Shown here: positions 19,648 to 64,000 of the stretch, in pieces | Layout: each line of letters begins with the position of its first letter | Numbering within the stretch: position 1 is the stretch's first letter | Assembly (NCBI RefSeq): GCF_022846255.1 | Contig: NZ_AP025682.1 | Direction: 5' to 3' (one strand) | DNA: 64,000 bases | From: Escherichia coli | GTDB taxonomy: Bacteria; Pseudomonadota; Gammaproteobacteria; Enterobacterales; Enterobacteriaceae | Program-made: the position numbers and the translations under genes | The notes under the pieces: generated by a model | Told to the model about the DNA's origin: nothing | Database searches by the model: none | Seen by the model: the letters and a program-made list of their open reading frames with translations, nothing else

Positions 19648-22571
<2,924 letters not shown>

Positions 22572-35189: not shown

Positions 35190-35501
35190 GACTTATCCAT
35201 CAGACGAGGGAAGAATTCCACCTCAGAGACTCAAAAATCGTTTAAATGATGTGGAAGCGATCGTCAATGTCACCTGTAACGATGAGCTTTCTCATATGCA
35301 CACCACAGTGTTCAGGAGACACGGAAAGGTACCAGGCGGCCTGCTAACGAGTGGTTTCTTCACTAATTAGGACGTAAAATCGGTAACGGCTGGAAATCAT
35401 TCAATACTCACACTATCGAAAGTACACCAGCCAACCGAGATACGTCCCTGCATACGACGTACCGCAGTTATCTTTACGATTTATAGCTGTACTGGTGAAT
35501 T

Positions 35502-35831: not shown

Positions 35832-35853
35832 ATATACAATAATTAATTGCATT

Positions 35854-35888
35854 GCCCCGCCAGCTGTAATAGCGGGGCTTCGTTTTTC
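35854..35888 (+). terminator. Intrinsic terminator after ykgJ
   Basis: GCCCCGC...GCGGGGC stem followed by TTCGTTTTTC. Confidence 0.6.
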
Positions 35889-36038
35889 AGGGACAACAAA
35901 ACCTGAAACTTCTTCCATTTTCCAGCAACAATGCCTCTTCTTCTGTAGCGTTCTCCGGATCTACATCATCCTGAAGTAGCGCGATATGATCACTGACTGT
36001 CCGCATCAGAATATGAAAAGCAACGTTTTTAACCTATA

Positions 36039-36065
36039 AAAATGGCGCTATATTTGCGCCATTTT
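36039..36065 (-). terminator. Intrinsic (bidirectional) terminator after yagU
   Basis: AAAATGGCGC-TATATTT-GCGCCATTTT perfect 10-bp stem flanked by A/T runs. Confidence 0.6.
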
Positions 36066-36079
36066 TATCATTCAAAGCA

Positions 36080-36694
36080 TTATCTATTTGAGCCTAAAGG
36101 GATCTCAGGATCTGGCTCATGGGTAATTCTGTTTCGTAAATCTCTGCGAATAATTTCAATAGACCAGAACCAGACTAAATGTCCAAAAATTTCAGAGACA
36201 TTCTCATACCACGGAAGCTCAAAGAGAGGTGGCGTAAGTCCCATGAGAGGGAATGAAATCATATGAACAAAAAGTTGCGCTAAAGCACCTGCCAGTAAGC
36301 CCTGCCAAAGTTTAATTTTCGGAAATACTTCGGCGACCACACAGTAACCAACGGCAAAAACTATCGAAAAGATTATGTGCGTTACACCAACCCAGTTAAA
36401 GACATGCCCGGCGAAGGTATAAACAGCCGAATTTGGATCTGTCAGTCCCAACCAATCCCGAAGAAAAATGTACGGAGGATTGAGAAAGTTACGGGAGCAA
36501 TCAATTTGGCCTGCAGCCCTGATTAATGATTCCGGACCACACGCTGCATTAAACATATCAACCGGACTACGTGGTGGCAATGGAACTTCTGCCCCCCACT
36601 TAACAAATGCGGAAACAACGCCAGCAATCAGCCCAATGAATGCAGCAAGACCATAACGTCTGCGGTTTGGTGGAGTTTGTTCAAATATATTCAT
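36080..36694 (-). CDS. yagU: Inner-membrane protein YagU (DUF1440)
   Basis: 204 aa, multi-[36 protein letters not shown]... Confidence 0.85.
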
Positions 36695-36901
36695 ATCTAC
36701 CCTGCTTGTACCATTATGTTATACACCTCTTTAGGAGTATTCATAAAACAAGGCAAATGTAAAGAACTGTATTGTTTTGTATAACCACATGGTTACCTAA
36801 TCGCCAATTAATATAAGCTCCATTATTTCTCCATATTTTTATGTTAGAAGTGACAAGGAGAAATGTAATGTTTCTCTCAGAGAATATAAATCATTCCTTT
36901 T

Positions 36902-36926
36902 GCCCACCTTAATGGTGGGCTTTTTT
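36902..36926 (+). terminator. Intrinsic terminator in the yagU-thrW spacer
   Basis: GCCCACC-TTAAT-GGTGGGC then TTTTTT; overlaps the stop of a 14-codon mini-ORF. Confidence 0.5.
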
Positions 36927-37151
36927 ATGCAAAACCTGAACGTCCTGTGGTATTCCTCTGGCATAATGATTTTCGCGATTAACCAACAACCAGACCAGCA
37001 AAGACGCCACCACAAGCACAGCAACATCCATCAGGCTTGCCACACCCCATGCGTGCGGCTCAAAGCCGCCATGGCATATTAATCCGCTTGCCATTTTCGA
37101 ACAGCTGATTGGTTTAGTCCGGTGTTTCCCTGCTTGCACTTAAAAATGAGC

Positions 37152-37226
37152 GGATGGGAAACTCTCGAAATGGTTCGTCGATATGCTCACCTCGCACCTA
37201 ATCACCTTACCGAACACGCACGGTAA
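37152..37226 (+). pseudogene. Remnant: last about 25 codons of a phage-type tyrosine integrase
   Basis: ...[24 protein letters not shown] (RYAHL catalytic-Tyr tail); upstream frame is not integrase-like; lies 89 bp from the tRNA-Thr 3' end. Confidence 0.45.
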
Positions 37227-37314
37227 ATAGATTCGATCCTGAACCCATCGGTCCCAAATCTGTCCCAATAAAAAATAAGGAAGGTATTAGTGATGTGTAA
37301 CTTATTGATTTAAA

Positions 37315-37390
37315 TGGTGCCGATAAGAGGAGTCGAACCTCCGACCTTCGCATTACGAATGCGCTGCTCTACCAACTGAGCTATATCGGC
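37315..37390 (-). tRNA. thrW: tRNA-Thr (anticodon CGU)
   Basis: 76-nt cloverleaf read on minus strand: acceptor GCCGATA/TATCGGC, D-arm GCTC-AGTTGGTA-GAGC, anticodon loop TTCGTAA, T-arm GGAGG-TTCGACT-CCTCT, encoded CCA. Confidence 0.95.
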
Positions 37391-48430: not shown

Positions 48431-49486
48431 TCATAATCCCAGCACCAGTTGTCTTTCCATTTGAGGGTCAAGTAACGTCACATGCAGCCCCACCAGACGC
48501 ACACCGCGCCCGCCACGGCGTTCATCCCAGGTTTTACGCGCGGTGGCGATTAAGTCAGCTTTATTCAGCCGCGGCCAGACGTGCTCCTGAGTGGTTTGCT
48601 GAAAATCATCAAACTTTAATTTCACCCCCTGGCGAGCAATCAGTAAATCAGGTTTTACCTTTGCCAGACGGCGTTCAAGTTCAGGATACAGCCGCTCGAT
48701 AATCGCTTCACATTCAGACCAGTGATGAATATCTTCCGCCATCGTGCGTTCCACGCCGACGGATTTTCGCAACCGTTCACTGTTAACGTCGCGCTCGTCA
48801 ATCCCCTGACTACGCTCCCACAAAATGCGGCCAAATTTGCCAAAACGTTTGAGCAGAGTCACCAGATCACACTTTTGCACATCACCGCAGGTCCGCAGCC
48901 CCATCGCTTCCAGTTTTGCCGCCGAGACTTTGCCGACGCCGGGAATTTTTGCCAGCGGTAAGGTTTGCAGAAATGCCGGAACTTCTGCCGGCGTAATCAC
49001 AAACTGGCCGTTGGGTTTATTCATGTCGGAGGCGATTTTGGCGAGAAACTTGACCGGCGCAACGCCCGCAGACGCCGTCAGTTGCAGCTCGTTGAAGATC
49101 GTCTGGCGGATTTCCTGGGCGATGAGGGTCGCAGAACCGTGGCAATGGACGCTATCGGTGACATCGAGATAGGCTTCATCCAGTGATAACGGTTCAATGC
49201 GCGAGGTATAGCGCGAGAAAATTTCGCGGATATGATTTGAGGCTTCTTTGTAGGCGTCAAAGCGCCCTGGAAGCAAGGTGAGATGCGGGCATAATTTGAG
49301 CGCCATCCCTGTCGGCATAGCGCTACGTACGCCAAATTTACGCGCGGGATAATTGGCGGTGCTGATTACCCCCCGTCGTTCGCGGCTGCCGCCAATAGCA
49401 ATAGGGATATCGCGCAGGGCGGGATTGTCGCGCATCTCCACCGCTGCGAAAAAGCAGTCCATATCCACATGAATGATTTTACGCAT
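48431..49486 (-). CDS. dinB: DNA polymerase IV
   Basis: 351 aa, [33 protein letters not shown]... (Y-family polymerase). Confidence 0.95.
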
Positions 49487-49556: not shown

Positions 49557-50480
49557 TTAACGCGTTCGCTGCGAAAGCACCTGCTGCTTATCCAGCTTTT
49601 GCACCAGCGGCTGCACCACTTTATCCCCATGCTGACCAAAGTATTGATACAGCGTATCGGACGCGCTTTTAGTCAGCACCATAATCTCAATGCGCCGGTT
49701 GCCCGCGCTTTGCGGATTTTTCGCGTCCAGCAGCATCTGGTCCGCCATTGCGCTCACCTGCATCACTTTATCTTCCGGCATTCCTGCCTCTTCCAGCACC
49801 CGACGAGCCGAAAGCGCGCGGTCACCCGAAAGGTTCCAGTTGTTGTAGATATTGTTTTTGTAGGCCATCGCATCGGTATGCCCGGTAATAATAATTTTGT
49901 TATCGAGCGAGTCGAACACTGGCGCGAGCTCCACCAGCAGCGTTTTAAAGAACGGCATAATCTGCGCGCTGCCGCGTTCGAACATATTGCGATTCTGGTC
50001 GTCTTTAATCAGCACGCGTAATCCCTGCGGGACAATCTCCATCTCCAGATTCGCTTCCATATGCGCATCACGGGCAATGGTGTTGATGCTGGTTGCCAGC
50101 TCACCAAGCTCGGTGGCGGATTTCTTCTTCAGCAGCGCCGTTTTCTCGTTGACGTCGCGCGCTTTTTTCTCCGTCTCTTCCGGCACCGCCACGGTGGCAG
50201 GTTTTGACGGATGAGACGGGCTGATTTTATTTAACGGCGACAGCCCACCACCGTTAAAAATCGACTGCCCGTGCAGCGCGGCGATAATGCTTTCACGCTC
50301 GGATTTACTGACGCTATTGACAATCCACAGCGTCATAAATAGCGCCATCATCGCCAGGGTAAAGTCGGCGAACGCTACCTTCCACGCCCCGCCGTGGTGC
50401 CCGGCATGATTCTTTTTGATCTGCCGCCGGACGATGGTGGTTTTTGCCCCACGCTCGCGGCGGTTGCCCGTCTTTCTCAT
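49557..50480 (-). CDS. lafU: Lateral-flagellar stator protein, MotB-like
   Basis: 307 aa from MRKTGNRRERG...; TM segment then C-terminal OmpA-like peptidoglycan-binding domain. Confidence 0.85.
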   Translation of the reverse strand: MRKTGNRRERGAKTTIVRRQIKKNHAGHHGGAWKVAFADFTLAMMALFMTLWIVNSVSKSERESIIAALHGQSIFNGGGLSPLNKISPSHPSKPATVAVPEETEKKARDVNEKTALLKKKSATELGELATSINTIARDAHMEANLEMEIVPQGLRVLIKDDQNRNMFERGSAQIMPFFKTLLVELAPVFDSLDNKIIITGHTDAMAYKNNIYNNWNLSGDRALSARRVLEEAGMPEDKVMQVSAMADQMLLDAKNPQSAGNRRIEIMVLTKSASDTLYQYFGQHGDKVVQPLVQKLDKQQVLSQRTR

Positions 50481-50482
50481 GC

Positions 50483-51346
50483 TTATTCTTGCTCCAGCAT
50501 CGCATTCACCCATGCATCGAGGTTGGCGAAGGTCGGTTTGGACGCCAGATGCAGCAGCTTACGCCCGGCGTCCACCGCCAGCAGCGTCGGTTTGCCGCCC
50601 GCCTGGGCCACCAGCACGGTACGCACACACTCCAGCAGCGAATGTTCCGCCCGCGCCTGCTGTTCCATGGCGTTGGCGAGCGGGTCCATCAGGCAGTAGC
50701 AAATAAACACGCCTAAAAATGTCCCCACCAGCGCTGCCGCCACTTTCAGGCCAATCAGGGCGATAGAACCGTCAATTGACTGCATGGTGATGATGATGCC
50801 CAGCACTGCCGCGCAAATACCAAATCCCGGCATCGCTTCGGCGGTCCGTTGCAGCGAGCGTGACGGCGTTAACAGCGACTCTTCAGCGGTGTCCAGCTCC
50901 TGATCGAGAATGCCTTCCAGTTCATGGGCGTCGATTTTACCCATCGCCATCAGGCGAAAGTTATCGGCAATAAAAGTCACCAGCCGCTTCTGGGTTAACA
51001 CCAGCGGGTATTTCTGGAAAACGGTACTCTCTTCCGGCTGCTCAATATGCTGATCCAACATCCGCAGACCGCCGTTTTGTACCATTTCAAGCAACTCATA
51101 CAGGCACATTAATAGCTGGCGCTGAAACTCCGGCCCGAGCTGTTTTTTACTGATCACGCCTTTAATTTGATGGGCAATCTCTTTCAGCACATGTTTCGGG
51201 TTCCCAATAATCATCGCCCCGAAACCCGCACCCAAAATAATGATCATTTCCGCCGGTTGCCAGATAGCCACTAATTGGCCGCCCGCTTCAAAATAACCGC
51301 CAAATACGCAGCCGAGCACCACCAGTAAACCTAATATTTTTTGCAT
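50483..51346 (-). CDS. lafT: Lateral-flagellar stator protein, MotA-like
   Basis: 287 aa, four TM segments, MotA/TolQ/ExbB family. Confidence 0.85.
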   Translation of the reverse strand: MQKILGLLVVLGCVFGGYFEAGGQLVAIWQPAEMIIILGAGFGAMIIGNPKHVLKEIAHQIKGVISKKQLGPEFQRQLLMCLYELLEMVQNGGLRMLDQHIEQPEESTVFQKYPLVLTQKRLVTFIADNFRLMAMGKIDAHELEGILDQELDTAEESLLTPSRSLQRTAEAMPGFGICAAVLGIIITMQSIDGSIALIGLKVAAALVGTFLGVFICYCLMDPLANAMEQQARAEHSLLECVRTVLVAQAGGKPTLLAVDAGRKLLHLASKPTFANLDAWVNAMLEQE

Positions 51347-51358
51347 GATTTCTTCACT

Positions 51359-52078
51359 TTAATTCGGATAGACAAAATCACGAATTTTCTGCGCGATCTG
51401 TTTATTCAGTTGACAAATTCGGGCCTCGGTTAGCCCTAATACCAGCGCAATCTCTTTGAGATTCATCTCATGCTGGTAATACATGGAGAGGATCAGTTGC
51501 TCTTTTTCGCTTAATTGTGAAAGCGCGTGTTGCAGCATTTTCTGCGTGACAAACTGATCTTCCAGGTCTCTGCCAGCAAGCGGAATACCCGGTCCTTCGC
51601 CGTTCAGCAGTTCGTCCAGGCTGGCGAGCGTTTCCGCCCCTTCCAGTTGCTGATATTCGAGATAATCTTCATGCGAGATCCCTTCCTCAGCCAGCTCCTG
51701 CCACTCCGGTTCGTGCCCCAGTTTTTTACGCGTTTCGCGAATCAGGTCTTTCATCTGATGATATTTCTGTCGCAGCTGGCGCGGTCGCCAGTCGAGAGCG
51801 CGCAGCTCATCCAGGATCGCACCGCGAATACGGTGCACGGCATAGCCCGCAAAACCTTCGTCCGGCAGCCCATAGCGACGAATGGCCTTCAACAGCCCCA
51901 TTAACGCCGTTTGTTCCATATCCTGACGGTCAATAATGCAATTACACTGCGGGGCAAGGTGCCGCACCACTTTACGCACCAACGGTAAATAGGCCTGCAA
52001 GTAGTGGCTCTCCTGCTGCGGGGTTAATACCGGCGCGGCAGCAAATTCTTCTGACTCGAATAATACGTCCTGTAGCAT
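51359..52078 (-). CDS. lafS: Sigma-28 (FliA)-type sigma factor of the lateral system
   Basis: 239 aa; region 2 and region 4 HTH (...LKEIALVLGLTEARICQLNKQIAQKIR...). Confidence 0.85.
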   Translation of the reverse strand: MLQDVLFESEEFAAAPVLTPQQESHYLQAYLPLVRKVVRHLAPQCNCIIDRQDMEQTALMGLLKAIRRYGLPDEGFAGYAVHRIRGAILDELRALDWRPRQLRQKYHQMKDLIRETRKKLGHEPEWQELAEEGISHEDYLEYQQLEGAETLASLDELLNGEGPGIPLAGRDLEDQFVTQKMLQHALSQLSEKEQLILSMYYQHEMNLKEIALVLGLTEARICQLNKQIAQKIRDFVYPN

Positions 52079-52097
52079 GTTTATATCCGCCTGGTGA

Positions 52098-52565
52098 TTA
52101 CTGGAAGACCACTTTTTTCACCAGTAAATCCTTATACGGTGCGCTCATTTTGCGACGCTGAAGATCTTTCTTTAACGCATCCGAAATCAGTTTGCGGATG
52201 GCAGATATTTTCATGCCGCGCAAATCTTCAAATTTCATTTCCGTCAGGCATTCAACTGCAATACTTTGATACAGAGGCTCCTGATGTTTTATTTTTTCCG
52301 CCTCTTTGTCACTGGCGACCACCATCACTAATTCCGCCGACAAATAATGATCCGCGCCGTTGTTGTCATGCAAAGTGACAATGGTTTCCGGCAGCGTCAC
52401 AAATACGCTCTTGCTCTCATCCAGAGCTTCCACCGATTCCGTTTGCGCGGCGGTAGTCGGTTTTCCTTTTCCGGCATAATGATGCCAGACACTCCATCCT
52501 GCTCCAGCGCCGACCACCAACGCCAGAACGGCGCTGACCACGCCTGCCACCACGATTTTCTTCAT
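52098..52565 (-). CDS. lafF: FliL-like flagellar basal-body-associated protein
   Basis: 155 aa, single N-terminal TM segment. Confidence 0.75.
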   Translation of the reverse strand: MKKIVVAGVVSAVLALVVGAGAGWSVWHHYAGKGKPTTAAQTESVEALDESKSVFVTLPETIVTLHDNNGADHYLSAELVMVVASDKEAEKIKHQEPLYQSIAVECLTEMKFEDLRGMKISAIRKLISDALKKDLQRRKMSAPYKDLLVKKVVFQ

Positions 52566-52572
52566 ATTGCCT

Positions 52573-53634
52573 TTACACTTTGATCAAAACGGATTCGTTC
52601 TGTTGAAATTGAGGCGCATCATCAAGCTGTAAGGCGGCACTCACCTCTTCCTGCTGATGGCCCGACTGTTGTTGCTGCTGCGACTGCCCTTCGGAGGAGA
52701 CCTGTACGTTCACCTCCATAAAATTTTGCGCCGTCAGATGCTGGCGGAGATCGTCGCTAAACTGCTGTAACGCGCGGCAAACTTCACTTTGGTTCGCGCC
52801 GATGTGCACCATCAGTTTGCCGTTGTCGAGTTGTACGGCGATCTCGAGCTTGCCAAGCGACGGTGGATCGAGACGGATGGTGGAGATCTGCTGTTGTTTG
52901 TTGAGCTGAAAGTGGATCTGATCTTTCAACAGCGTCGTCAGTTTTTCGCCCAGTTCGTCGATCGAAAGCGTGGCTGGTTTGGCGACAATCTCCTGATGAT
53001 CGCTGACCAGCTCCGGCGTCTTAACCTGCAACACCGCACGCGCAATAACCAGTTCGCTGTCCGACACTTTTTCCGTTTTACGCTCGACCTGCGGGCGCGC
53101 GTTCACACGGGTTAGTTCAGGTTTCGGGCGAGCTGGCTGTGTTGAGACGCGCGGCTGCGTCGGTGCAATGGCATGTAAATCTTCACTGGCGTAAGTCGCC
53201 AGTCTGGCCTGCTGTTCGGGTTTCGCCTGCGGCAACTGACCGATCAGCTCCTGCAACTGCGGCGGCAACGGCGTGAGTTCCTGCTGCTGCGTCGGGCGTT
53301 GCGCCGCGTTTTGCACCACCGCTTTCGTCAATTGCTGGATAACCGGCGATGTTGCGACGTTTCGCGGCTGCGGCGTGTCCTGATGCGGCGCGGCAGGTTG
53401 CGGAAGTAACAGCGCCATTAGCGCCTGCATCGCCACCGGATCGTTCTCCTGCGGGCGCGTCGCCTGTTGCTGACTGGTTTTTGCGCTATGAACGCGCTCC
53501 GCCACCGCCGCGACCGCCATTTTCGGCAGGGTAAACGCGGGCGCGTTTTCACTACTCACCGGCGGTAAAATATCCGCTTTCAGCGACGCCGTTTCCGCAA
53601 GTGTTCCGAGCGTGGCAAGCAATGCCGGATTCAT
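52573..53634 (-). CDS. lafE: Hook-length control protein, FliK-like
   Basis: 353 aa, Pro/Gln-rich middle, C-terminal FliK domain (...RLDPPSLGKLEIAVQLDNGKLMVHIGANQ...). Confidence 0.75.
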   Translation of the reverse strand: MNPALLATLGTLAETASLKADILPPVSSENAPAFTLPKMAVAAVAERVHSAKTSQQQATRPQENDPVAMQALMALLLPQPAAPHQDTPQPRNVATSPVIQQLTKAVVQNAAQRPTQQQELTPLPPQLQELIGQLPQAKPEQQARLATYASEDLHAIAPTQPRVSTQPARPKPELTRVNARPQVERKTEKVSDSELVIARAVLQVKTPELVSDHQEIVAKPATLSIDELGEKLTTLLKDQIHFQLNKQQQISTIRLDPPSLGKLEIAVQLDNGKLMVHIGANQSEVCRALQQFSDDLRQHLTAQNFMEVNVQVSSEGQSQQQQQSGHQQEEVSAALQLDDAPQFQQNESVLIKV

Positions 53635-53942
53635 GACTTCTCCGAAAGTAAATTAACAATTGAGTAGGCCAGTACGCCTTCCTGATGCCGCTGATGCTGT
53701 TCCATACGCGCCTTCAACACTTCTGCACGCTGCTCGCGCCGTTTAATCAGGGCATTAAACGCGCCGTACAGCTGCGCCTTCACCGCACACAACTGCGCCG
53801 CGTCGGTTTCCGCCGCCACGTAATCGTGAAACTGGCGCATCAACTGCTGATGCAGTGCCGGAAGGCGTCGCCAGCGTTGCTTGTCGAGGGCTTCGTTCAT
53901 CGCTTCAACCAGCGCGAAAAGTTGCCTGCGTTGTTTTTCCAT
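53631..53942 (-). CDS. lafD: FliT-like flagellar export chaperone (by position after fliS homolog)
   Basis: Helical 103 aa from MEKQRRQLFALVEAMNEALDK; alternative GTG start at 53984 would overlap lafC. Confidence 0.5.
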   Translation of the reverse strand: MEKQRRQLFALVEAMNEALDKQRWRRLPALHQQLMRQFHDYVAAETDAAQLCAVKAQLYGAFNALIKRREQRAEVLKARMEQHQRHQEGVLAYSIVNLLSEKS

Positions 53943-53946
53943 CGTC

Positions 53947-54339
53947 TTAACCCAGCTTGCCCGAAAGCCCTTCCCAGCCTTCACGCAGGTTGCTTAAGAT
54001 CAGCATCACTTCATCGATTTTCTCTGCCGACAGTTCGCCGCTGGCCTCATACAAGCGATACACACAGTGGTCATAGAGGCGCGAAAGGTTGACCACCAGC
54101 TCGCCGCCAGTTTCAAACTCCAGCGAACTGGTGAGCGCATTGAGAATGTCGATGCATTTATTGATGCTCTGGGCTTTCTTCTCGAAACGCCGCCCTTCAA
54201 TATGGCTTTTGGCGCGTTCCAGCTCGTCCATCAGACCAGAAAACAGCACCAGCACCAGTTCCAGAGGCGATGCCGCCGCAGTACGCGCCGCGAGATCGAT
54301 CTCTTTATATTGCGAATAGCCGTCCTGTACTTGGTACAT
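53947..54339 (-). CDS. lafC: FliS-like flagellin-specific chaperone
   Basis: 130 aa, MYQVQDGYSQYKEIDLAARTAAASPLELVLVLFSGLMDELERAK... Confidence 0.8.
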   Translation of the reverse strand: MYQVQDGYSQYKEIDLAARTAAASPLELVLVLFSGLMDELERAKSHIEGRRFEKKAQSINKCIDILNALTSSLEFETGGELVVNLSRLYDHCVYRLYEASGELSAEKIDEVMLILSNLREGWEGLSGKLG

Positions 54340-54361
54340 CTTTAGGGATATTCCTTCTGAG

Positions 54362-55678
54362 TTACGCGAATGCCGCCATGCTGGCTTTCATGGTGTACAC
54401 CTCGACCAGCGTGTTGGTGTACTCCTCGAGATAACGGTCGTAGTTGGCGTTATAGGTATCAGTAAGCTGATCGCCTTCGTCCTGAATTTTGCTCATCTGA
54501 TCGTCAATGTTCTGCTGGCGCAGGGTGATGATGCCGTTGCTGGAGTCCGTGTAGGTGTTAATCAGGTCGTCCATCTGTGCCACCATGCTGTTGTCGCCAA
54601 CGAAAATAGAGGTCAGACCGTCAGGATTTTTCGCCATTTCGTCGTTGAACTGGTCGGAGTCAATCTGTAAGTGGCCGTGAGAATCAAGCGTGATGCCATA
54701 GTCAACAATCGACACCCCGTTGTAGCTGGCATGGGCGATATCATCGAGCTGGTTCGCCAGTGAGCTGAGTCCGGCGTCACCCGCAAATACCCCGGCGCTG
54801 GTACTGTCATCACCGTGGGTGGTCAACGAATCAACCGTATCAATCAAGGTGTTATAAGCATCAACAAAGGTCTGTACTTTCTCCTGGCTGGCGCTGGAAT
54901 CTTCGCTGATGTTAAAGGTAGTGAGATCGCTGTCAGAATCGCTGACTTCGGTGAAAGTCATGGTGACGCCGGGGATCACATCATCAAAGGTATTGCTGCT
55001 ATTAGTGATCTCTGGCCCCGTGGCGCTGCCGAGATGAATAATCGCGTCCTGGGCGGAGGAAACATCCGTAGCAACAGGCGCGCTGGCGCTGTCGTTGCTG
55101 GCGTCATGCCCCGTTACGCTCACCGAAAATGCGCTCTGCGCCCCGGTGCTATCGGAGGTGAGCATAATCGTGGTGGTGCCGTCGGTTTTTACCAGTGCCG
55201 CCGACACGCCCGGATTGTCATCAGAGTCGTTAATCGCATTCACCAGTTCACTGGCGTCGATAAAACCGTCGCCGTCACCGTTCTGATCTGCCGCCGACAG
55301 ATCAATATCCATGGTGCTGTCGCCCATCGTCAGTTCGAAGGTGCCGGTAGCGGAAAAGGCGTCGTCGCCCATACTGAACGTGGTTTGCTGCCCCTGTGCC
55401 AGTTGCTCAACGAAAAATGAGTAGCTTCCCGCCTGCACCTGCGAGTTAGCGGAAACGGTCGCCGAGTCATTATTGCTGGTGGCGGCAAACGTCACCGGGC
55501 CGTCAGTATCGCTGTTCAGCGCGTCAACGGCGCTCTGAAAATCGCTCAACGCTGAGCTGAGCGAGTCCAGGCCGCTGCTTTCAGCATCCAGCTCGCTCTG
55601 CTTCTCCTGCAAATTGGCTGCCTGAGTGGCAACATCCGCATAAGCGATTTCTTGCGCAATGGTTCTTGGGTTGATCAT
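54362..55678 (-). CDS. lafB: Flagellar filament cap (HAP2), FliD-like
   Basis: 438 aa, N- and C-terminal heptad regions typical of FliD. Confidence 0.8.
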   Translation of the reverse strand: MINPRTIAQEIAYADVATQAANLQEKQSELDAESSGLDSLSSALSDFQSAVDALNSDTDGPVTFAATSNNDSATVSANSQVQAGSYSFFVEQLAQGQQTTFSMGDDAFSATGTFELTMGDSTMDIDLSAADQNGDGDGFIDASELVNAINDSDDNPGVSAALVKTDGTTTIMLTSDSTGAQSAFSVSVTGHDASNDSASAPVATDVSSAQDAIIHLGSATGPEITNSSNTFDDVIPGVTMTFTEVSDSDSDLTTFNISEDSSASQEKVQTFVDAYNTLIDTVDSLTTHGDDSTSAGVFAGDAGLSSLANQLDDIAHASYNGVSIVDYGITLDSHGHLQIDSDQFNDEMAKNPDGLTSIFVGDNSMVAQMDDLINTYTDSSNGIITLRQQNIDDQMSKIQDEGDQLTDTYNANYDRYLEEYTNTLVEVYTMKASMAAFA

Positions 55679-55812
55679 TGATGACTCCGGATAACGATGT
55701 CAGGTTATTGGCAAAAGGCGTGCCAATAATTTTTATGTGAATAATCAATAAATTGAAAAAGGGGCGGAAATGGTGTTTCCGGTCTGGCGGAAAAAAGCCT
55801 GCCGCTGAAAGC

Positions 55813-55873
<61 letters not shown>

Positions 55874-55883
55874 AAGTCCGCCA

Positions 55884-56798
55884 TTACTGCAGCAGGCTGG
55901 AAACCATGCTGGACATGCTGTTGGACTGTTTCAGCATGGTGATGCCGGTCTGCATCAGCACCTGCTGTTTAGTCATGTTGGACGCTTCCGTCGCGTAGTC
56001 GGTATCCATAATGTTACCGATAGCGACTTCGGTGTTGTCCTGCATACTGGTCAGGTTATTAGCGGTGTCGTTCAGACGGTTGATAGACGCCCCCAGCTTG
56101 GACTGGATCTGCGAAACATCATCCATCGCGGTAGAAATGCTGGTGATCATCTGGTTAGCCGAGCCAGACGCAGTCAGCTCAGTACCGCCAGAAACGCCTG
56201 CGGTGCCAGTGGTGTCAGCCTGATCCGCACTGAAGGAGTTGCTGATAGCAGAAAGATCCGTCACCAGGGTATTCAGCTGGCTTGAAATATTCACGGTCAT
56301 GGTGTCGGAAGATTCCGCGCCCACCTGGAAAGTTACTGCGCTCTGGAACAGACCGTCAGTACCGGTGTTGCTGGTACCGGAAACACCGAACAGGTTGGTG
56401 CCGCCGTAAGTGGTGTTTTGCAGCATGTCAGACATCTGCTGACCCAGTTCATCGTATTCGTCCTGCATCGCCTGCAGATCGTCGTCGCTGTAGGTGCCGT
56501 TCGCTGCCTGAGTTGACAGGTCTTTCATACGACCCAGCACATCAGACATTTCGTCGAACATGCTGTCAGCGGTTTGCAGCATCGCGGTGGCATCATTGAT
56601 GTTGCTCAGCGCCACACCCATACCGCTGGACTGTGCTGTCAGACGGTTAGCAATTTGTTTGCCTGCGGCGTCATCGGCAGAAGAGTTAATCCGGTTACCC
56701 GTTGCCAGGCGTTCCATAGATGTAGACAGAGAAGAGCTGCTTTTACTGATTGCATTAACGGCGGCCATTGAGGCGTTATTGGTGTTAATAGATAACAT
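55884..56798 (-). CDS. lafA: Lateral flagellin
   Basis: 304 aa from MLSINTNNASMAAVNAISKSSSSL... to ...MLKQSNSMSSMVSSLLQ with AAGGAG SD (track ORF extends 22 codons upstream). Confidence 0.85.
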   Translation of the reverse strand: MLSINTNNASMAAVNAISKSSSSLSTSMERLATGNRINSSADDAAGKQIANRLTAQSSGMGVALSNINDATAMLQTADSMFDEMSDVLGRMKDLSTQAANGTYSDDDLQAMQDEYDELGQQMSDMLQNTTYGGTNLFGVSGTSNTGTDGLFQSAVTFQVGAESSDTMTVNISSQLNTLVTDLSAISNSFSADQADTTGTAGVSGGTELTASGSANQMITSISTAMDDVSQIQSKLGASINRLNDTANNLTSMQDNTEVAIGNIMDTDYATEASNMTKQQVLMQTGITMLKQSNSMSSMVSSLLQ

Positions 56799-57232
56799 GA
56801 TACTGCTCCTTGGGATTAATCGTTTTCGTTTCGATACCCTGTAAAAACGACACCTCAGGAGCAAACTTAAAATCGCCGTTAAAATTTTTTCGCCACGTAT
56901 TATCCGATGCCACTTTTAGCTAAAAAAAGCAGAGGTTAAATTCAGATAAAAAGATTATTAGCAATATCTGCCACATGGCCAGGAATCAAAATATGTCTTT
57001 ATCAAATGCTTGATATAGTTAAGATTGTCATCAATTAACGCGTTTTCTTCTCAATGTACTGATGCCAAAATTTACATTGCGTTGCAAATAGTACACGTTT
57101 AGCTATTGTGCCTGTCCTGTCATTTCGTTACATTTCCACGCCATATAGTGATTAAGAATAATCCTATTACCATAAAATATTAATTATCACGCAGAAAAAT
57201 CATCTTCTCAGGGACGTATAAGACTGTGCTTT

Positions 57233-58126
57233 ATGCAAAGCACTATCAGGAAACATTTATCCCTTGCTAAGGTAAACTCAACTATGAGTATTATTATCAA
57301 CAACTGGCGGATGGACCCGTCGCTTAATGCCTTAATACATTGCGAAACGGGTGAAACACGTCGTCTCGGCGAATACCATTTTATTTTGCTGGAAACATTA
57401 GCAAAAAATGCCGATGTGGTTTTATCGCGATCTTATTTATGTGCCGAAGTATGGAAGAACCGCATTGTCGGCGGTAACAGCCTGCCGACGGCGATCCACG
57501 CTCTGCGCGTTGCCATTGATGATGACGGCAAGCAACAGAACATTATTAAAACCATCCCGAAAAAAGGGTACCTGTGCAATAAAGAGTATGTGTCTTTGCC
57601 GGAGTCATCGCCTGCAGAAGCGCTGATTATTACCGACCAGATACAAGATACAGCCCCAGAAGAGATATCTTCGACAACACCGCCTGTACCTGTTAGAAAA
57701 AAACATAAAGGACTGATGGGGTTAGCGTTGGCCGCAGCTGTTATATTTATTGGCTCGACCGTGGGGTATTCACACTTGAAAAGTACACCTGACGCCCCGC
57801 AACTGGTAAAAGAGTCAATTAACAGTCCAAGAATAAAAATATTTCATTTAACTTCTGCTGGAGAAAATAATTCCGTACCGTTACTATCACAAACCCTCGC
57901 ACCAGGAAAAGACAAACTCGATAATTTATTGTCAGCGCATAATATGACAATGACAACCTATTATAAATATGTTCGTAACCGACTGGAGAGTGATATTGTT
58001 CTGCGCAACCAGTGCAATGGTAGCTGGCAATTAACCTTTAATGTGGAAGGTTGGCAGAACAGCGATATTAATAGCGCGATGTATCAGAATTTAGAGAAGT
58101 TGTTAAATACTGTGCAGAAATGCTGA
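57233..58126 (+). CDS. lafZ: ToxR/CadC-like membrane-anchored transcriptional regulator
   Basis: 297 aa; N-terminal OmpR/PhoB-type winged helix, one TM segment (GLMGLALAAAVIFIGSTV), periplasmic C-terminus; divergent from lafA. Confidence 0.65.
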   Translation: MQSTIRKHLSLAKVNSTMSIIINNWRMDPSLNALIHCETGETRRLGEYHFILLETLAKNADVVLSRSYLCAEVWKNRIVGGNSLPTAIHALRVAIDDDGKQQNIIKTIPKKGYLCNKEYVSLPESSPAEALIITDQIQDTAPEEISSTTPPVPVRKKHKGLMGLALAAAVIFIGSTVGYSHLKSTPDAPQLVKESINSPRIKIFHLTSAGENNSVPLLSQTLAPGKDKLDNLLSAHNMTMTTYYKYVRNRLESDIVLRNQCNGSWQLTFNVEGWQNSDINSAMYQNLEKLLNTVQKC

Positions 58127-58141
58127 TGAGTGCCAATATAT

Positions 58142-58178
58142 GCCGGATGCGACGCTAAACGCGTCTTATCCGGCCTAC
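58142..58178. repeat. REP (palindromic unit)
   Basis: GCCGGATGCGACGCTAAACGCGTCTTATCCGGCCTAC, canonical REP between lafZ and lafW. Confidence 0.7.
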
Positions 58179-58184
58179 CGATAA

Positions 58185-59162
58185 TTACCCCAATAAATTC
58201 CTCACCGTCTGGCTGGAAATTCGCGCCTGACCGTTCACAGCCTGCAATAAAACCTGATAGTTATGATTGGCGCTATCAAGCACACCGCCGAGATTTTCCG
58301 ATGCCTGCACCGCGTTTTCCGTTTGCGGGAAGCGCGACATGCCGTCGATCAGCTGCCGCGCTTTTTCCTGCTGCACCGCCATCTTCGCGCGCTGCTGATT
58401 AATGTTTTCTAACGTCTGAGAAATCCCCGCCCCACCCTGTTGCAGGCTTTGCGCTAAGCGGTCCGCCTGTGACGGTTCGGCAAAGGTTTTTAGCGGCATA
58501 AACGCTGATTTATCACCATCGGTACGCACGCTTAAGGTTCGTTCGATATGGGGCCACTGTTTTTCAGTGGTGGAGAAGCTGATGCCATCGGCGTGTTGAT
58601 GCATCTGAACGCCCACGCGGCGCAGAGCGTTGGTCAGCCGCGTCTGATACTGCGCGGCGCTGTCATCCTCAGACAGCATCACCGCCGAAAGCTGAGTCTG
58701 CCGCCCGTCAGAGACGCTGAACATGCGCGTTCCCGGCGTGGGATTGTGTACCAGATTCGTCAGATCCGGCGAGTGAAAAGTCACCCGCGCTTCCCCCTGC
58801 AACACTGGCTGCAACTGGCGGTCCACCGCGCCGCCGGAAAGCGCGGTGCGTTTGTCCAGCATCTGCATCAGCGCTGAACTCTGCGCCTGCCCGCCCTTAC
58901 GCTGGCTGTGACGGTAATCGAGCAACTGCTGTTCCAGTTGCCCGAGATAGTGATCCGCCTGCTGCAACGTGGTGAGCTGATCGTTAAGCTGCACACTGTA
59001 ACGCTGCGGGCGAGTGGTAATCAGCGGCGAGGCCGGATATTCACTCGCCGTCGCCGGGAGTTTTTGCCGCACCGCCTGAGTGGGCGCAACGGTTGACGAC
59101 GATACCGCAGCGCTATGCGCGCCGCCGGTGGCGAGTGATGAAGATGTAAGTCCGACCTGCAT
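58185..59162 (-). CDS. lafW: Flag-2 protein of unknown function
   Basis: 325 aa, Ser/Gln-rich, no recognisable domain; placed by synteny between lfgL and lafZ. Confidence 0.5.
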   Translation of the reverse strand: MQVGLTSSSLATGGAHSAAVSSSTVAPTQAVRQKLPATASEYPASPLITTRPQRYSVQLNDQLTTLQQADHYLGQLEQQLLDYRHSQRKGGQAQSSALMQMLDKRTALSGGAVDRQLQPVLQGEARVTFHSPDLTNLVHNPTPGTRMFSVSDGRQTQLSAVMLSEDDSAAQYQTRLTNALRRVGVQMHQHADGISFSTTEKQWPHIERTLSVRTDGDKSAFMPLKTFAEPSQADRLAQSLQQGGAGISQTLENINQQRAKMAVQQEKARQLIDGMSRFPQTENAVQASENLGGVLDSANHNYQVLLQAVNGQARISSQTVRNLLG

Positions 59163-59178
59163 ACGGTTCCTGAAAGAG

Positions 59179-60108
59179 TTAGAGAACGCTGAATAAATTC
59201 AACTCACTCACTTTCGAGTAAGTCTTGAGGGTAGCTTCCATTGCCACTTCCAGTCCGGTAAAGGTGATCGACGCCGGGCCGTAATCGAGATCCTGTAAAG
59301 AACCAATCAACTCATCATTAGAGGTAGAAATATCGGTCTGCGCATCGCTCAGCATCGACATGGTGTTCTGCGTCTCGCCAAGCGACGCAATCGAGGCGTT
59401 GAGATCGTCCGAAGCGGTATCCACCACATCAACGGCGTTCTGAAGATCGCTCTGCACCTGCGGATCTGCCGGGTCAACATCCGGGTTTTGCAGCTCCTGC
59501 GACAGGGAATTAAGGGTGTTGAGCACGTCTAAATTACTGCCGAAGAAATCGCTCGCCGCCACGTTGGTATCCACTTCCACGCCGTTCGACACCGTAGTCT
59601 GACGATGGTCACTGTTACCCTGATAGCTATAGCTGTCGGTCACACCATCACCGTCATCATCCACAGCCACAATCGGCGGCTGATCGTTGATGGTGCCGCC
59701 AAAGACGTAATGCCCGTCTTCATCCTGATAGTTCAGCGCCGCGACCATTGATTCGGTGAGCGACTCAATATCCTGGCCGAGGCTTGCCAGCGAATCGGCG
59801 GTATTGGTGCCGTTCGCTGCTTCCAGCAGGTCGTCACGCACCGCCAGCAGGCTGTTGTTGACGCCATCAAGAATAGACTCCTGCTGGCTTAAGCCCGCCG
59901 ACGCGGAGTCGATATTGCTCTGATACTGTTCAATCGCCGACTGCTGGCGGTTTAACTGGGTGATGCGCGTGGCGGCGATTGGGTCATCCGACGGCTGCAA
60001 AATTTCCTTGCCGGTTGCCATCTGCTCGACCACATGCGCCAGAGAGCCGGAGAGATTATTAAAACTTTGCGTCATCGAGACGTAGGTTTGTTGGGTGGTT
60101 ACTCGCAT
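59179..60108 (-). CDS. lfgL: Hook-filament junction protein (HAP3), FlgL-like
   Basis: 309 aa from MRVTTQQTYVSMTQSFN with GGGAG SD; flagellin-like terminal helices. Confidence 0.8.
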   Translation of the reverse strand: MRVTTQQTYVSMTQSFNNLSGSLAHVVEQMATGKEILQPSDDPIAATRITQLNRQQSAIEQYQSNIDSASAGLSQQESILDGVNNSLLAVRDDLLEAANGTNTADSLASLGQDIESLTESMVAALNYQDEDGHYVFGGTINDQPPIVAVDDDGDGVTDSYSYQGNSDHRQTTVSNGVEVDTNVAASDFFGSNLDVLNTLNSLSQELQNPDVDPADPQVQSDLQNAVDVVDTASDDLNASIASLGETQNTMSMLSDAQTDISTSNDELIGSLQDLDYGPASITFTGLEVAMEATLKTYSKVSELNLFSVL

Positions 60109-60122
60109 TTTCGCGCTCCCGC

Positions 60123-61499
60123 TTAGCTGCACATTTCCAGCACCGAATCGAAAATCTCGGCCCCGGCGGAAATGACTTTCAGATTGGCTTCATAAATTTG
60201 TTGATAGGTGATCAGGTTCACCGCCTCTTCGTCCATGCTGACGCCGCTGACGCTACTCTGCTGGTTTTGCGCTTCGGAATAGACATTGGACGCGGCATCG
60301 ACTTCCGTCTGGTTTTGCTGACTGTAAATGCCGATATTGCTGATGATTGACGAGCACGCCTGCCCGACCGTCACACTGCCGAGGTTGGCTATCTCCAGCG
60401 GTTCGGTGGAGATATTGATCAGCGCCTGCAGGTTGTCGCTGTTGCCGCTTTCGTCCGGTGAACTGGAAAACGCCAGCTCATCGGCAGTGATATCCGGGTT
60501 AACGGTCAGTGGGCCGTCGGCATTGCTGGCATCGTAAATAAACAGTGGCTCGCCGGGGTTACCGTTGAGATCGTAGCCCTGCGCCAGCTGGTTGTTGACC
60601 GCATCGGCGAACTGCGACGCCATGCTGTTGATGGTGTCGGTCAGCGGCGTCAGCACATCGTTTTGATAATCAAACAGTGCGCCTAATGAACCGCCAGTGT
60701 CGGTGGTCATCGTCGAGATGGTTCCGGCGAAGGTCAGCGTCATACTTGCTGTACCATCGGCGTTGGTTTCCAGCGCGATGGTCGAGCTTTGCTGCCCGCT
60801 CACCAGCGGCTGACCGTTTTTCAGGGTGACGTTGTAGTTGCCCTGGTCGTCAACATTGACCTGCACGTCCATCATTCCGCTCAGTTCTTCCACCATCTGA
60901 TCGCGGGCGTCGTACAGCGCGGAGGCGTTATCGCCGTTGGCTTCGGCCTGAGCGATTTGCTGGTTATAGCTGGCGATGCCGCTGGTCAGCGTATTGATTT
61001 GCGATACCATCGCCTGCTGCTGACTGATGATTTCCGTGCTTTGCGAGTCGATGTAATCCAGCGTGTTGTCGATGCGCAAGGACAGCGCCCCGGCTTCGCT
61101 GATCACCTGCTCGCGCAGGGCGGAATCATCGGGGCTGGTGGTCGCTTCGTTAAGGGCAGCGAAAAAGTTATCGAAGCCGCCGCTCAGACTGCTGTTATCG
61201 TCGCTCAGTACCGCTTCCAGTTGTGTGAGATACCCTTGTTGGGTGCTGTAATAGCCGTAATCGCTGGCGGCATACCATACCTGATTAACCTGATACTGGT
61301 TGGAGACGCGGCGAATACTGTCGACCTGCACGCCGTTACCGGCGCTGTTCGGCGAACCACCGCTGGCACCGATGGTGCTGATCTCCGCCACCTGGCGGGT
61401 GTAGCCCGTGGTCATGGCGTTAGCGGTGTTTTGCGCCGTGACGTTCAGCTCCACCTGCGCGGTTGATGCGCCGCTGTAGCCGATGTTAATCATGTCCAT
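60123..61499 (-). CDS. lfgK: Hook-associated protein 1, FlgK-like
   Basis: 458 aa, MDMINIGYSGASTAQVELNVTAQNTANAMTTGYTRQ... Confidence 0.85.
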   Translation of the reverse strand: MDMINIGYSGASTAQVELNVTAQNTANAMTTGYTRQVAEISTIGASGGSPNSAGNGVQVDSIRRVSNQYQVNQVWYAASDYGYYSTQQGYLTQLEAVLSDDNSSLSGGFDNFFAALNEATTSPDDSALREQVISEAGALSLRIDNTLDYIDSQSTEIISQQQAMVSQINTLTSGIASYNQQIAQAEANGDNASALYDARDQMVEELSGMMDVQVNVDDQGNYNVTLKNGQPLVSGQQSSTIALETNADGTASMTLTFAGTISTMTTDTGGSLGALFDYQNDVLTPLTDTINSMASQFADAVNNQLAQGYDLNGNPGEPLFIYDASNADGPLTVNPDITADELAFSSSPDESGNSDNLQALINISTEPLEIANLGSVTVGQACSSIISNIGIYSQQNQTEVDAASNVYSEAQNQQSSVSGVSMDEEAVNLITYQQIYEANLKVISAGAEIFDSVLEMCS

Positions 61500-61582
61500 G
61501 TTGGGTCCTTACCGGTAAATCGTGCCGGTTAAAAGCGGCGTGAAGTTGGGGATTCTTAAGTGGATAATGGTGCGCGCTGATG

Positions 61583-61690
61583 CCCTCACCCCGGCCCTCT
61601 CCCACAGGGAGAGGGCGAAAACCTGCGCCATATTCACCTCCGCGCTCAATCGGTCCCCTCGCCCCTTTGGGGAGAGGGTTAGGGTGAGGG
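61583..61690. repeat. Composite GC-rich inverted-repeat element in the lfgJ-lfgK spacer
   Basis: CCCTCACCCCGGCCCTCTCCC (61583-61603) versus inverted GGGAGAGGGTTAGGGTGAGGG (61670-61690), plus local perfect hairpin GCCCTCTCCC-ACA-GGGAGAGGGC (61594-61616). Confidence 0.6.
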
Positions 61691-61704
61691 GCAAAGCGCG
61701 CCCC

Positions 61705-62004
61705 TCATTTCCCCTTCGGCGACAACTGCTTCACAATCATCGCCGCAATCCCAATCCCGTGCTGCTGCGCCAGGGTGTTACACAACTCATCGTCATAAAA
61801 CCCCTGCATCATGCGCACCGAATCGCTGTTAAATGGGTTATCTTTCGAATCGAACAACTCGTTGGTTTTACGCATCTCTTTCAGCATGTTGCGTAAAAAA
61901 ATCGCCTCAAACTGTTCCGCGGCCTGCCTGATATCATTGGCCTGAACCTTCGGCCCCATTAACGCATCGCTGCCGTCAATCCCGCCGCTGCCGTTGATTT
62001 TCAT
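61705..62004 (-). CDS. lfgJ: FlgJ-like rod-binding protein (N-terminal domain only, no muramidase)
   Basis: 99 aa, ...AAEQFEAIFLRNMLKEMRK... Confidence 0.75.
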   Translation of the reverse strand: MKINGSGGIDGSDALMGPKVQANDIRQAAEQFEAIFLRNMLKEMRKTNELFDSKDNPFNSDSVRMMQGFYDDELCNTLAQQHGIGIAAMIVKQLSPKGK

Positions 62005-63119
62005 CAGATCACCTCCAGGTCGGCATCCAGCGCGCCCGCCTCATGCAGCGCCTGCAAAATCGACATAATGTCATCCGGCGTCGCGCCTAAACTGTTCAAC
62101 GCATTAACCAACGTTTTCAGGCTGCTCGACTCCGGCAAACTCACCACGCCCGGACGGGCATGATTCACCGCGATATTGCTCTGTGGCGTTACTGCCGTAC
62201 GCCCGCCCGCAAAGGCATTCGGTTGGCTGACGTTGCTGGTTTCGTTAATTGAGACAGTCAGGCTGCCATGCGACACCGCCGCCGCGTGCAGCGCGATGCC
62301 ATCGCCCATCACCACCGTACCGGTACGCGAGTTAAACACCACGCGGGCGCGGATTTTCTCCGCCTGCACCTGCACATCATCCAGTTGCGACATAAACGCC
62401 ACCCGCGCGCCGGGGCTGGTGGGCGCACGCACAGTGACGTTGGTGGAACTCTGCGCCGTGGCAATGCCGCCAAACGAGGCGTTGATCGCCGCCGCAATGT
62501 TGTTGGCGTCTTTAAACGACGGGCGTTTCAGGTTGAGCGTGATGGTGTCGCCCATCTGAAAATCGCTGGGGATCTCGCGCTCCACCGTCGCGCCGTTGGG
62601 AATTAACCCGGCGGTTGGCGTATTAACCGTTACGCTCGAACCGCTGGCCCCGGTGGCATTCATCCCGCCCACCACCACGCTGCCCTGCGCCAGCGCATAA
62701 ACTTCGCCATCCGCGCCGTGCAACTGGGTCAGCAACAAAGTGCCGCCACGAATACTTTTGGCATCGCCAATCGACGAAACGGTGACATCAATGGTCTGCC
62801 CGCGCGAGTACATCGGCGGCAGCGTGGCGCTCACCGCCACCGCGGCGACGTTTTTCACCTTCGGGTCGATTTTATTCGGCAGTTGCACGCCAAACTGGCG
62901 CAGCATATTGGTGATGGTCTGGTTGGTGAATTTGACCTGGTTTTTATCGCCCGTGCCGTCGAGGCCGACCACCAGGCTGTAGCCGACCAGTTGGTTTTCA
63001 CGCACGCCCTGTACGTTGACCAGCGATTCCAGCGATTGCGCCAGCGCCACGCCAGGTAGCGCCAGGCTCACGGTGATTACTGCGGCCTTTATCCAGTTTT
63101 GCATTGCACTCTCCGGCAT
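62004..63119 (-). CDS. lfgI: Flagellar P-ring protein, FlgI-like
   Basis: 371 aa with signal peptide; start overlaps lfgH stop. Confidence 0.9.
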
Positions 63120-63784
63120 TAAATCGGGAACAGAGGATGGTTAAACAGTCGCGTCAACCAGCCTGCGGCGTTGGCGTCGCTTAACGCGCCGCGTCCGGCA
63201 TAGGAGATGCGGGCATCGGCGATCCGCTGCGAGGAAACCGAGTTGTCGTTCTGGATGTCGTCGGCGCGCACCAGGCCGCTTAAGCGGATGTACTCATCGC
63301 CCTGGTTGAGGGTCAGCCATTTTTCGCCGCGAATTTCCAGGATGCCGTTAGGCTGCACCGCATGGACGGAAACGGTGATCTCCCCGCGCAGGCTGTTCTG
63401 CTGCTGGGAAGTGGCGCTGCCGTCAAAGTCGCGGTTGGCATCAATGGAGCCGGAAAGCTTATCTTTGGTGTGTCCAAAAATGGTCGGCGCGCCGATATCG
63501 ACGGTGTTGCTTTTGCCGAAGTTGGTTTTCGCCTGTTTGCTCGACTGGGTGGATTCTTCGAGGATCACCGTCAGGATATCGCCCACGCGGTAAGCCCGCC
63601 GGTCGGCAGTTAGCGACCAGTTGTAGCCGGTTTCAAACACGCCCCCGGCACGCCCGTCTGCCGGAGGCGGCGCTTCGGTGGTTGGTGGCGCAAAGTATGC
63701 GTCGTCTTTTTTGACCAGAATGGCCTGCGATTCACACCCGCTAAGCAGGGGAAGCAGCGCCACCAGCCAGAGATAATTTTTCAC
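63119..63784 (-). CDS. lfgH: Flagellar L-ring lipoprotein, FlgH-like
   Basis: Called from GTG ([19 protein letters not shown], lipobox LLSGC); the 25 codons the track adds upstream are read through a REP unit. Confidence 0.8.
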
Positions 63785-63821
63785 GTTCTGCCTGTTTAAA
63801 TACAGTGAGTTATGTGCTCTT

Positions 63822-63858
63822 GTAGGTCGGATAAGACGCCTCAGCGTCGCATCCGACA
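63822..63858. repeat. REP (palindromic unit) between lfgG and lfgH
   Basis: GTAGGTCGGATAAGACGCCTCAGCGTCGCATCCGACA. Confidence 0.7.
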
Positions 63859-63865
63859 TTTCGCC

Positions 63866-64000
63866 TTACAGCGTCTGGCTGATGTACTGCAACATATCGT
63901 CCGCTGCTGACACCATTTTGGCGTTCATCTCGTACGCGCGTTGCACCGTAATCATCGCCACCATTTCGTTGACGATATCCACGTTCGAGCCTTCGAGCGC
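63866..64000 (-). CDS. lfgG: Distal rod protein, FlgG-like, C-terminal 44 codons (gene continues beyond window)
   Basis: Minus-strand translation ...ALEGSNVDIVNEMVAMITVQRAYEMNAKMVSAADDMLQYISQTL* is the conserved FlgG C-terminus. Confidence 0.8.
   Translation of the reverse strand, partial: ALEGSNVDIVNEMVAMITVQRAYEMNAKMVSAADDMLQYISQTL

Follow-up and report, generated by a model that had tools for sequence, protein, structure and literature searches.

An intact Flag-2 lateral-type flagellar locus beside dinB in a lineage of Escherichia coli and its possible roles

Does the row of flagellar genes beside dinB in a 64,000-nucleotide stretch of an Escherichia coli genome (contig NZ_AP025682.1; hereafter, the window) belong to a complete second flagellar system, and could that system work? 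An earlier note on this DNA had assigned the row to Flag-2, the secondary, lateral-type flagellar locus of E. coli. We observed dinB at positions 48431-49486, separated by 70 bp from lafU. Open reading frames (ORFs) and NCBIfam matches then gave the order lafU-T-S-F-E-D-C-B-A on the minus strand, lafZ as the sole plus-strand gene, and lafW-lfgL-K-J-I-H-G again on the minus strand (Table 1). Judged by this content and order, positions 49557-64000 very probably correspond to Flag-2 cluster 3 (lafWZABCDEFSTU) and, from cluster 2, the distal genes lfgG-L. The gene list of the earlier note was borne out in content, order and strands, apart from lafW, which had been overlooked; its count of 16 genes becomes 16 complete genes plus a cut lfgG at the edge of the window.

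The assignment was examined by comparison with E. coli 042 (NC_017626.1, 284.7-323.2 kb), the enteroaggregative strain whose Flag-2 locus was reportedly described by Ren et al. in 2005. The same three clusters lie there at the same site, between yafL/rayT and dinB, in the same order and on the same strands. All 42 proteins are 90.6-100% identical, and the loci, including the window portion, are collinear at 94-97% nucleotide identity, with breaks at intergenic or variable regions alone. The proposed match to the lateral system was thus upheld by collinear alignment. The 042 locus differs from the one described here by a frameshifted flgC (lfgC), by a RelE/ParE toxin gene and a helix-turn-helix (HTH) gene in variable region 2 (VR2), and by rayT standing beside lfhA. 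The site between dinB and yafL is the Flag-2 insertion site, and yafL follows lfhA in contig L038 of the same lineage as the window. In MG1655, just the lfhA and lafU pseudogenes were found, abutting dinB; this confirms the K-12 lfhA'-lafU' deletion scar and agrees with the statement of the earlier note that K-12 keeps fragments at this site. Three Flag-2 markers without orthologs in the flag-1 system (PMC6993521) are present, with amino acid identities to 042 of 96.6% for lafW and 97.1% for lafZ in the window and of 98.2% for lafK in the same-lineage extension described below. Moreover, LafA was recognized as a lateral-type flagellin by the NCBIfam exception model lat_flg_LafA_1, above its cutoff (Table 1).

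Some of the gene labels had to be narrowed. The FlgJ-like gene, lfgJ, does encode a rod-binding domain, but the muramidase domain is absent; its ortholog carries the Pfam domain Rod-binding and the RefSeq name "rod-binding protein." The FliT-like label of lafD found no support from hidden Markov models, since lafD had no match in NCBIfam or Pfam, and the name is drawn from its position and from the annotation of its ortholog by the Prokaryotic Genome Annotation Pipeline (PGAP). The ToxR-like label of lafZ held for the architecture, which comprises a winged helix (Pfam Trans_reg_C, residues 25 to 97, E value 4e-13), one hydrophobic segment (GLMGLALAAAVIFIGSTVGY) and a C-terminal domain of approximately 120 amino acids (aa), but not for the family: no ToxR family match was obtained, and the CadC equivalog matched at an E value of 1e-8 with 34 bits, far under its cutoff of 400. 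LafZ would therefore be of ToxR/CadC type in architecture alone, and by score a member of neither family. Three below-cutoff assignments have named orthologs: that of lafF is a FliL family protein in RefSeq, that of lafE carries Pfam Flg_hook, and that of lafB carries Pfam FliD_N and FliD_C. The longest ORF starts at 50513 for lafU, whose product is 99% identical to that of 042, and reaches 63859 for lfgH.

The cluster runs past position 64000, as the earlier note had pointed out, and the rest of the locus was sought in other assemblies by exact-protein look-up. Five window proteins had exact copies in merely four or five public contigs. FlgL, FlgA, FliM and a cytidylyltransferase-like protein were lineage specific and led to contigs; look-ups with FlgN, FliG and FliI returned other lineages alone, because these proteins are identical across lineages. 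Contigs BFRP01000396.1 (GCA_005387665.1), Logan DRR322657_28 and Logan DRR102846_1633 were joined to the window or to one another by overlaps of 5.7, 5.5 and 3.2 kb with 100% identity, yielding a composite of 91.7 kb in which the whole locus, from lafU to lfhA, occupies 37.5 kb (49557-87072 in composite coordinates). All 42 genes were uninterrupted. The equivalent of 16.2 of them lies in the window itself, and lfgG through lfhA were full length in the overlapping contigs (lfgG, 261 aa, in contig L020). The window and these contigs together displayed the three-cluster architecture lfhAB-lfiRQPNM-lafK-lfiEFGHIJ / lfgNMABCDEFGHIJKL / lafWZABCDEFSTU. As the earlier note had claimed, the window genes show no frameshift; they also have no internal stop, and every length equals that of the ortholog in both NZ_CP027447.1 and 042. 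Hallmark motifs were present as well, namely GAFTGA in LafK, NPTH in LfhB, the lipobox in LfgH, and the stator Asp of LafU, held by its FADF motif. lfgC, frameshifted in 042, is intact here, and variable region 1 (VR1), in the extension, contains genes for a FliB-like lysine methylase, a GT2 glycosyltransferase and a cytidylyltransferase-like protein. Thus, the whole 37.5-kb locus is intact in this lineage, with 42 uninterrupted reading frames.

How unusual is such a copy? Of 5,426 complete RefSeq E. coli genomes, 1,264 had the late half of the locus at a coverage of at least 80% and 1,272 had the early half (approximately 23% each), which agrees with the published carriage of 20-24% (PMC6993521; PMC4578781). 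The full core gene set was reported in 78% of flag-2 loci by De Maayer et al. (PMC6993521). EC958 (sequence type 131 [ST131]), PCN033 (a porcine extraintestinal pathogenic E. coli strain) and NZ_CP027447.1 have the full gene complement with an intact lfgC, as here, and sigma-54 sites before lfgB and lafB (PMC4578781); however, the EC958 locus is without lafWZ according to its authors (PMC4637896), whereas both genes are present here. Decay was observed among other carriers sharing an identical FlgK or FliM. It took the form of an EcoRII/Dcm pair in place of lfgM/lfgN (L003, L005 and L007, approximately positions 1-2100), an ISL3 transposase at lfgB (L025:19321-20940), a missing lfgD call in another carrier, fused or split lfhB-lfhA and a split lfhB (L027 and L039), and a split lfiG (L037). 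An intact copy is therefore normal for carriers, yet not universal. The Flag-2 locus, its site and its regulatory signature are already known and, with roughly a quarter of E. coli genomes possessing one, the completeness of the locus in this strain matters little past bookkeeping.

The allele itself is rare. The best identity to any of the complete RefSeq genomes was 97% for the locus and 98.7% for core genes beside it, so that the strain of the window is not in this set, and the allele is 3-5% diverged in nucleotides from every one of them. Identity along the locus to the nearest RefSeq locus was mosaic, with 100% for lafU, 99.7% for lafC and lafD, 94% for lafF and approximately 95% for lfgK, lfgL and lfgI, and synonymous divergence peaked at 0.24 within the locus, compared to 0.09 in neighboring dinB. 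This mosaic identity, together with the high synonymous divergence, suggests recombination among old alleles; recombination in this region has been reported for ST131 (PMC4637896).

We then estimated selection relative to NZ_CP027447.1. Pooled over 35 comparable Flag-2 genes, the proportion of synonymous differences (pS) was 0.13 and that of nonsynonymous differences (pN) was 0.010, a ratio of 0.079. The lateral flagellin gene lafA had a nonsynonymous divergence (dN) of 0 at a synonymous divergence (dS) of 0.07, and lafE, the FliK-like gene, was the sole gene with a dN/dS near 1. The Flag-2 proteins have thus evolved under strong purifying selection and, with a pooled pN/pS of 0.08, the genes have been kept by selection.

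The control signals of the locus were investigated by pattern searches. The site upstream of lafB (Table 1) was the one exact TGGCAC-N5-TTGC match in the entire window, and in the extension, correctly oriented sigma-54 sites with one mismatch were observed before lfgB and before the gene for the lysine methylase. Sites before lafB and lfgB have already been reported for strain PCN033 (PMC4578781). The region upstream of lfgM has a perfect -35 element (TAAAGTTT) and a poor -10 element. The guanine-plus-cytosine (GC) content of the lafA-lafZ control region and lafZ (56799-58126) is 0.41-0.47, compared to 0.55-0.60 in the structural genes. A generic scan for sigma-70 promoters and terminators gave counts no higher than those in shuffled sequence. 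lafA looks monocistronic, because repetitive extragenic palindromic (REP) elements and a GC-rich hairpin come after it, in what is probably its terminator region.

By gene content and by analogy with the lateral systems of Vibrio and Aeromonas, a cascade of LafK/sigma-54 followed by LafS/sigma-28 is most likely, and it is favored because LafK, LafS and LfgM are all present. The exact sigma-54 site before lafB fits this scheme. In such a cascade, LafK, a sigma-54 activator encoded outside the window, would switch on the promoters before lfgB and lafB and hence the basal-body, hook and lafB-U operons. The lafBCDEFSTU operon would then provide the cap, the chaperones, the protein that controls hook length, LafS as sigma-28 factor and LafTU as MotAB-type stator, and LafS would drive lafA after export of the anti-sigma factor LfgM. 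FlgK, FlgL and the flagellin-like LafW may form or modify the hook-filament junction, and LafZ, as a ToxR-like membrane regulator, probably couples expression to some envelope or environmental signal.

Compared by description, the locus shares with the laf systems of V. parahaemolyticus and A. hydrophila LafK as a sigma-54 activator that lacks a receiver domain, the dedicated sigma-28 factor LafS, a short flagellin and MotAB-type stators, as well as the gene order lafA-B-C-(X/D)-E-F-S-T-U (general knowledge and PMC6993521). Enterobacterial Flag-2 adds lafW and lafZ, which have no flag-1 counterpart (PMC6993521), and lateral flagella have been demonstrated in Vibrio and Aeromonas but not in E. 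coli. The flag-1 system of E. coli has homologous structural, export and stator proteins. In contrast to flag-1, Flag-2 is a separate locus with a FlgJ lacking the muramidase domain, a flagellin of only 304 aa and no chemotaxis genes, and its control would run via sigma-54 and LafK instead of FlhDC.

lafW is one of the two Flag-2-specific genes of this cluster, and searches of Pfam, NCBIfam, PHROGs and PDB sequences gave no match for its product. Comparison of LafW with LfgL or LafA by BLASTP and hhalign gave nothing significant. The family is small, with approximately 50 full-length members among 1.84 billion cluster representatives. Its consensus ends in a flagellin-like motif, Q-A-x-x-A-Q-A-N...T-V-x-x-L-L, and the family profile weakly matched the C-terminal helices of Bacillus flagellin (E value of 0.006). 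An AlphaFold2 model (predicted local distance difference test [pLDDT] score of 82 and predicted template modeling [pTM] score of 0.70) displayed approximately 50 disordered residues at the N terminus, a long helix in the N-terminal part, an alpha/beta domain as an insertion, and helices at the C terminus. In a Foldseek search with this model, all 11 PDB matches with an E value of 1e-3 or lower were flagellins, then FlgL, at low template modeling scores. The modeling lends moderate, though not conclusive, support to the notion that LafW is a divergent axial protein of the flagellin/FlgL type, its disordered N terminus serving in export. This reading accords with an older label, "putative hook-associated protein," as well as with the place of lafW directly after lfgL, and it provides a definite hypothesis on a gene specific to Flag-2.

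Could this apparatus function? The most ambitious possibility is that the rare intact allele specifies a working, conditional lateral flagellum, expressed via LafK/sigma-54 and LafZ in the cold, on surfaces, at high viscosity or outside the host, with a flagellin-like LafW at the junction that is absent from all well-studied flagella; we regard this as tentative and, on balance, doubtful. Several points weigh against our main reading of an intact, selected locus run by the proposed cascade. In EC958, the single E. coli strain with a seemingly intact locus that has been tested, LafA was undetected at 28 and 37°C, motility was dependent on fliC only, and a lafA mutant was still motile (PMC4637896); the caution of the earlier note, for which Flag-2 function in E. 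coli is poorly established, is consistent with this result. A strict scan for a sigma-28 promoter (TAAAGTTT-N10-12-GCCGATAA) found nothing convincing upstream of lafA, and the lafA-lafZ region as a whole contained no canonical sigma-28 or sigma-54 site in the strict scan. The sequence past base 64000 was taken from further assemblies within the lineage and not from the window. Finally, the decay seen in many other E. coli lineages makes a recent relaxation of selection possible. Our literature search found no evidence of Flag-2 expression in E. coli and no later functional study in this species, and De Maayer et al. call flag-2 function unresolved, citing a functional Plesiomonas homologue (PMC6993521).

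A rival reading is a locus that is intact in sequence but silent, an ancestral cluster no longer expressed and caught at an early stage of the loss seen in most strains. Approximately 77% of the complete E. coli genomes are without the Flag-2 locus and would have lost it, K-12 keeping stubs only; the decay described above for other carriers (ISL3 at lfgB, split or fused lfhB and lfhA, split lfiG), with the flgC frameshift of 042, and the lack of LafA expression in EC958 (PMC4637896) point the same way. However, a pN/pS of 0.08 and a LafA that is identical in amino acids between lineages at a 7% synonymous difference are not expected under functionless drift, and all 42 frames are intact in this lineage. 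A silent locus is a serious possibility, though we would give it somewhat short of an even chance.

Alternatively, the apparatus might be retained for something besides swimming or swarming, such as type III protein export, adhesion or surface sensing. De Maayer et al. bring up roles of this kind for taxa with a working flag-1, and a flag-2 knockout in Y. enterocolitica had no effect on motility (PMC6993521). Set against this, conservation is as strong in the genes for filament, cap, stator and junction as it is in the export core, an argument for selection on the entire rotating organelle, and the Plesiomonas flag-2 homologue was reported to be indispensable for swarming motility (PMC11420993). 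We consider such a role improbable. A recently acquired foreign island was rejected, since an ancestral locus lost repeatedly, as published, is consistent with the site, with the K-12 scar and with the presence of the locus also in E. albertii and E. fergusonii. For the conditional flagellum and its rivals alike, a lineage with 42 intact genes, purifying selection and an empty VR2 would offer a clean background for decisive experiments.

Table 1. Flag-2 genes and associated elements in the window, with the matches on which each name is based
Feature	Position	Strand	Description
lafU	49557..50480	-	MotB-type lateral stator, 307 aa; NCBIfam LafU equivalog NF005273, 579 bits (cutoff 383)
lafT	50483..51346	-	MotA-type stator, 287 aa; TIGR03818, 375 bits (cutoff 304)
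lafS	51359..52078	-	Lateral FliA/WhiG-type sigma-28 factor, 239 aa; NF009091, 442 bits (cutoff 339)
lafF	52098..52565	-	FliL-like, basal-body-associated, 155 aa; FliL models, E 1e-8 to 1e-10, below cutoff
lafE	52573..53634	-	FliK-like hook-length control, 353 aa; TIGR02514 (type III secretion system/YscP length-determinant domain), E 8e-9, below cutoff
lafD	53631..53942	-	Candidate chaperone in FliT position, 103 aa; assigned by position and PGAP FliT name on ortholog
lafC	53947..54339	-	FliS export chaperone, 130 aa; TIGR00208, 79 bits (cutoff 54); 100% aa identity to 042
lafB	54362..55678	-	FliD-like filament cap, 438 aa; FliD models, E 1e-43, below equivalog cutoff
Sigma-54 promoter consensus	55710..55725	-	TGGCACGCCTTTTGCC; 33 nt upstream of lafB start codon
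REP-type palindromic elements	55796..55887	.	Followed by GC-rich hairpin, then T-run; downstream of lafA; read directly, sub-threshold Rfam naRNA4 (REP-derived); probable lafA terminator region
lafA	55884..56798	-	Lateral flagellin, 304 aa; NF033376 lat_flg_LafA_1, 667 bits (cutoff 440); 100% aa identity to 042 LafA
lafA-lafZ control region	56799..57283	.	Divergent; AT-rich, GC 0.41-0.42
lafZ	57284..58126	+	Membrane-anchored winged-helix regulator of ToxR/CadC-like architecture, 280 aa
VR2	58127..58184	.	Between lafZ and lafW; empty but for one REP-like element
lafW	58185..59162	-	Flag-2-specific protein, 325 aa; between lafZ and lfgL
lfgL	59179..60108	-	Hook-filament junction protein FlgL, 309 aa; TIGR02550, 196 bits, above cutoff
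lfgK	60123..61499	-	Hook-associated protein FlgK, 458 aa; TIGR02492, 351 bits, above cutoff
GC-rich imperfect palindrome	61563..61701	.	~130 bp, between lfgJ and lfgK; predicted hairpin, -87 kcal/mol; no Rfam match
lfgJ	61705..62004	-	Rod-binding domain protein, 99 aa; FlgJ N-terminal models match at model positions 19-97 alone
lfgI	62004..63104	-	P-ring protein, 366 aa; NF003676, 450 bits, above cutoff; signal-peptide-like N terminus
lfgH	63119..63784	-	L-ring lipoprotein, 221 aa from GTG start; NF009072, 432 bits, above cutoff; lipobox LLSGC
REP-type element	63825..63908	.	Between lfgG and lfgH; sub-threshold Rfam naRNA4, read directly
lfgG	63866..64000	-	Distal rod protein, last 44 codons in window; TIGR02488 C-terminal end, E 3e-17

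Intergenic repeats were also observed in the locus. The Rfam search gave nothing beyond the sub-threshold REP-derived naRNA4 matches. The palindrome between lfgJ and lfgK has a second copy of 91% identity at composite positions 70862-70993 (L020:12606-12744), between the methylase and glycosyltransferase genes, and fragments of it were seen close to lfhA and to gmhA; in appearance it is a miniature repeat element. VR2 is the sole large difference between the window portion of the locus and NZ_CP027447.1, which has approximately 235 bp more there, an AT-rich remnant.

Further observations concern the neighborhood. Beyond lfhA in the same lineage, dpaA (yafK) comes directly after yafL (L038:6424-8225); this lineage lacks rayT and the toxin-antitoxin pair dinJ-yafQ, which are neighbors of the site in K-12. 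On the other side of dinB, the window contains an uninterrupted inverse autotransporter of the intimin/invasin type (1,416 aa, 14847-19097, minus strand), at what we take to be the position of eaeH in K-12. Genes for two aldo-keto reductases, two LysR regulators, a lactonase-like protein and an Old Yellow Enzyme-type reductase (19663-25971) lie between the inverse autotransporter and the ecp fimbrial operon. Within 35190-37390, an ORF of 204 aa (36080-36694) without an NCBIfam match, presumably of the size of yagU, lies approximately 600 bp from tRNA-Thr(CGU), and proA follows. The site at this tRNA, where K-12 presumably carries CP4-6, seemingly has no prophage in the window, and NZ_CP027447.1 has an integrase and phage-type genes beside the same tRNA.

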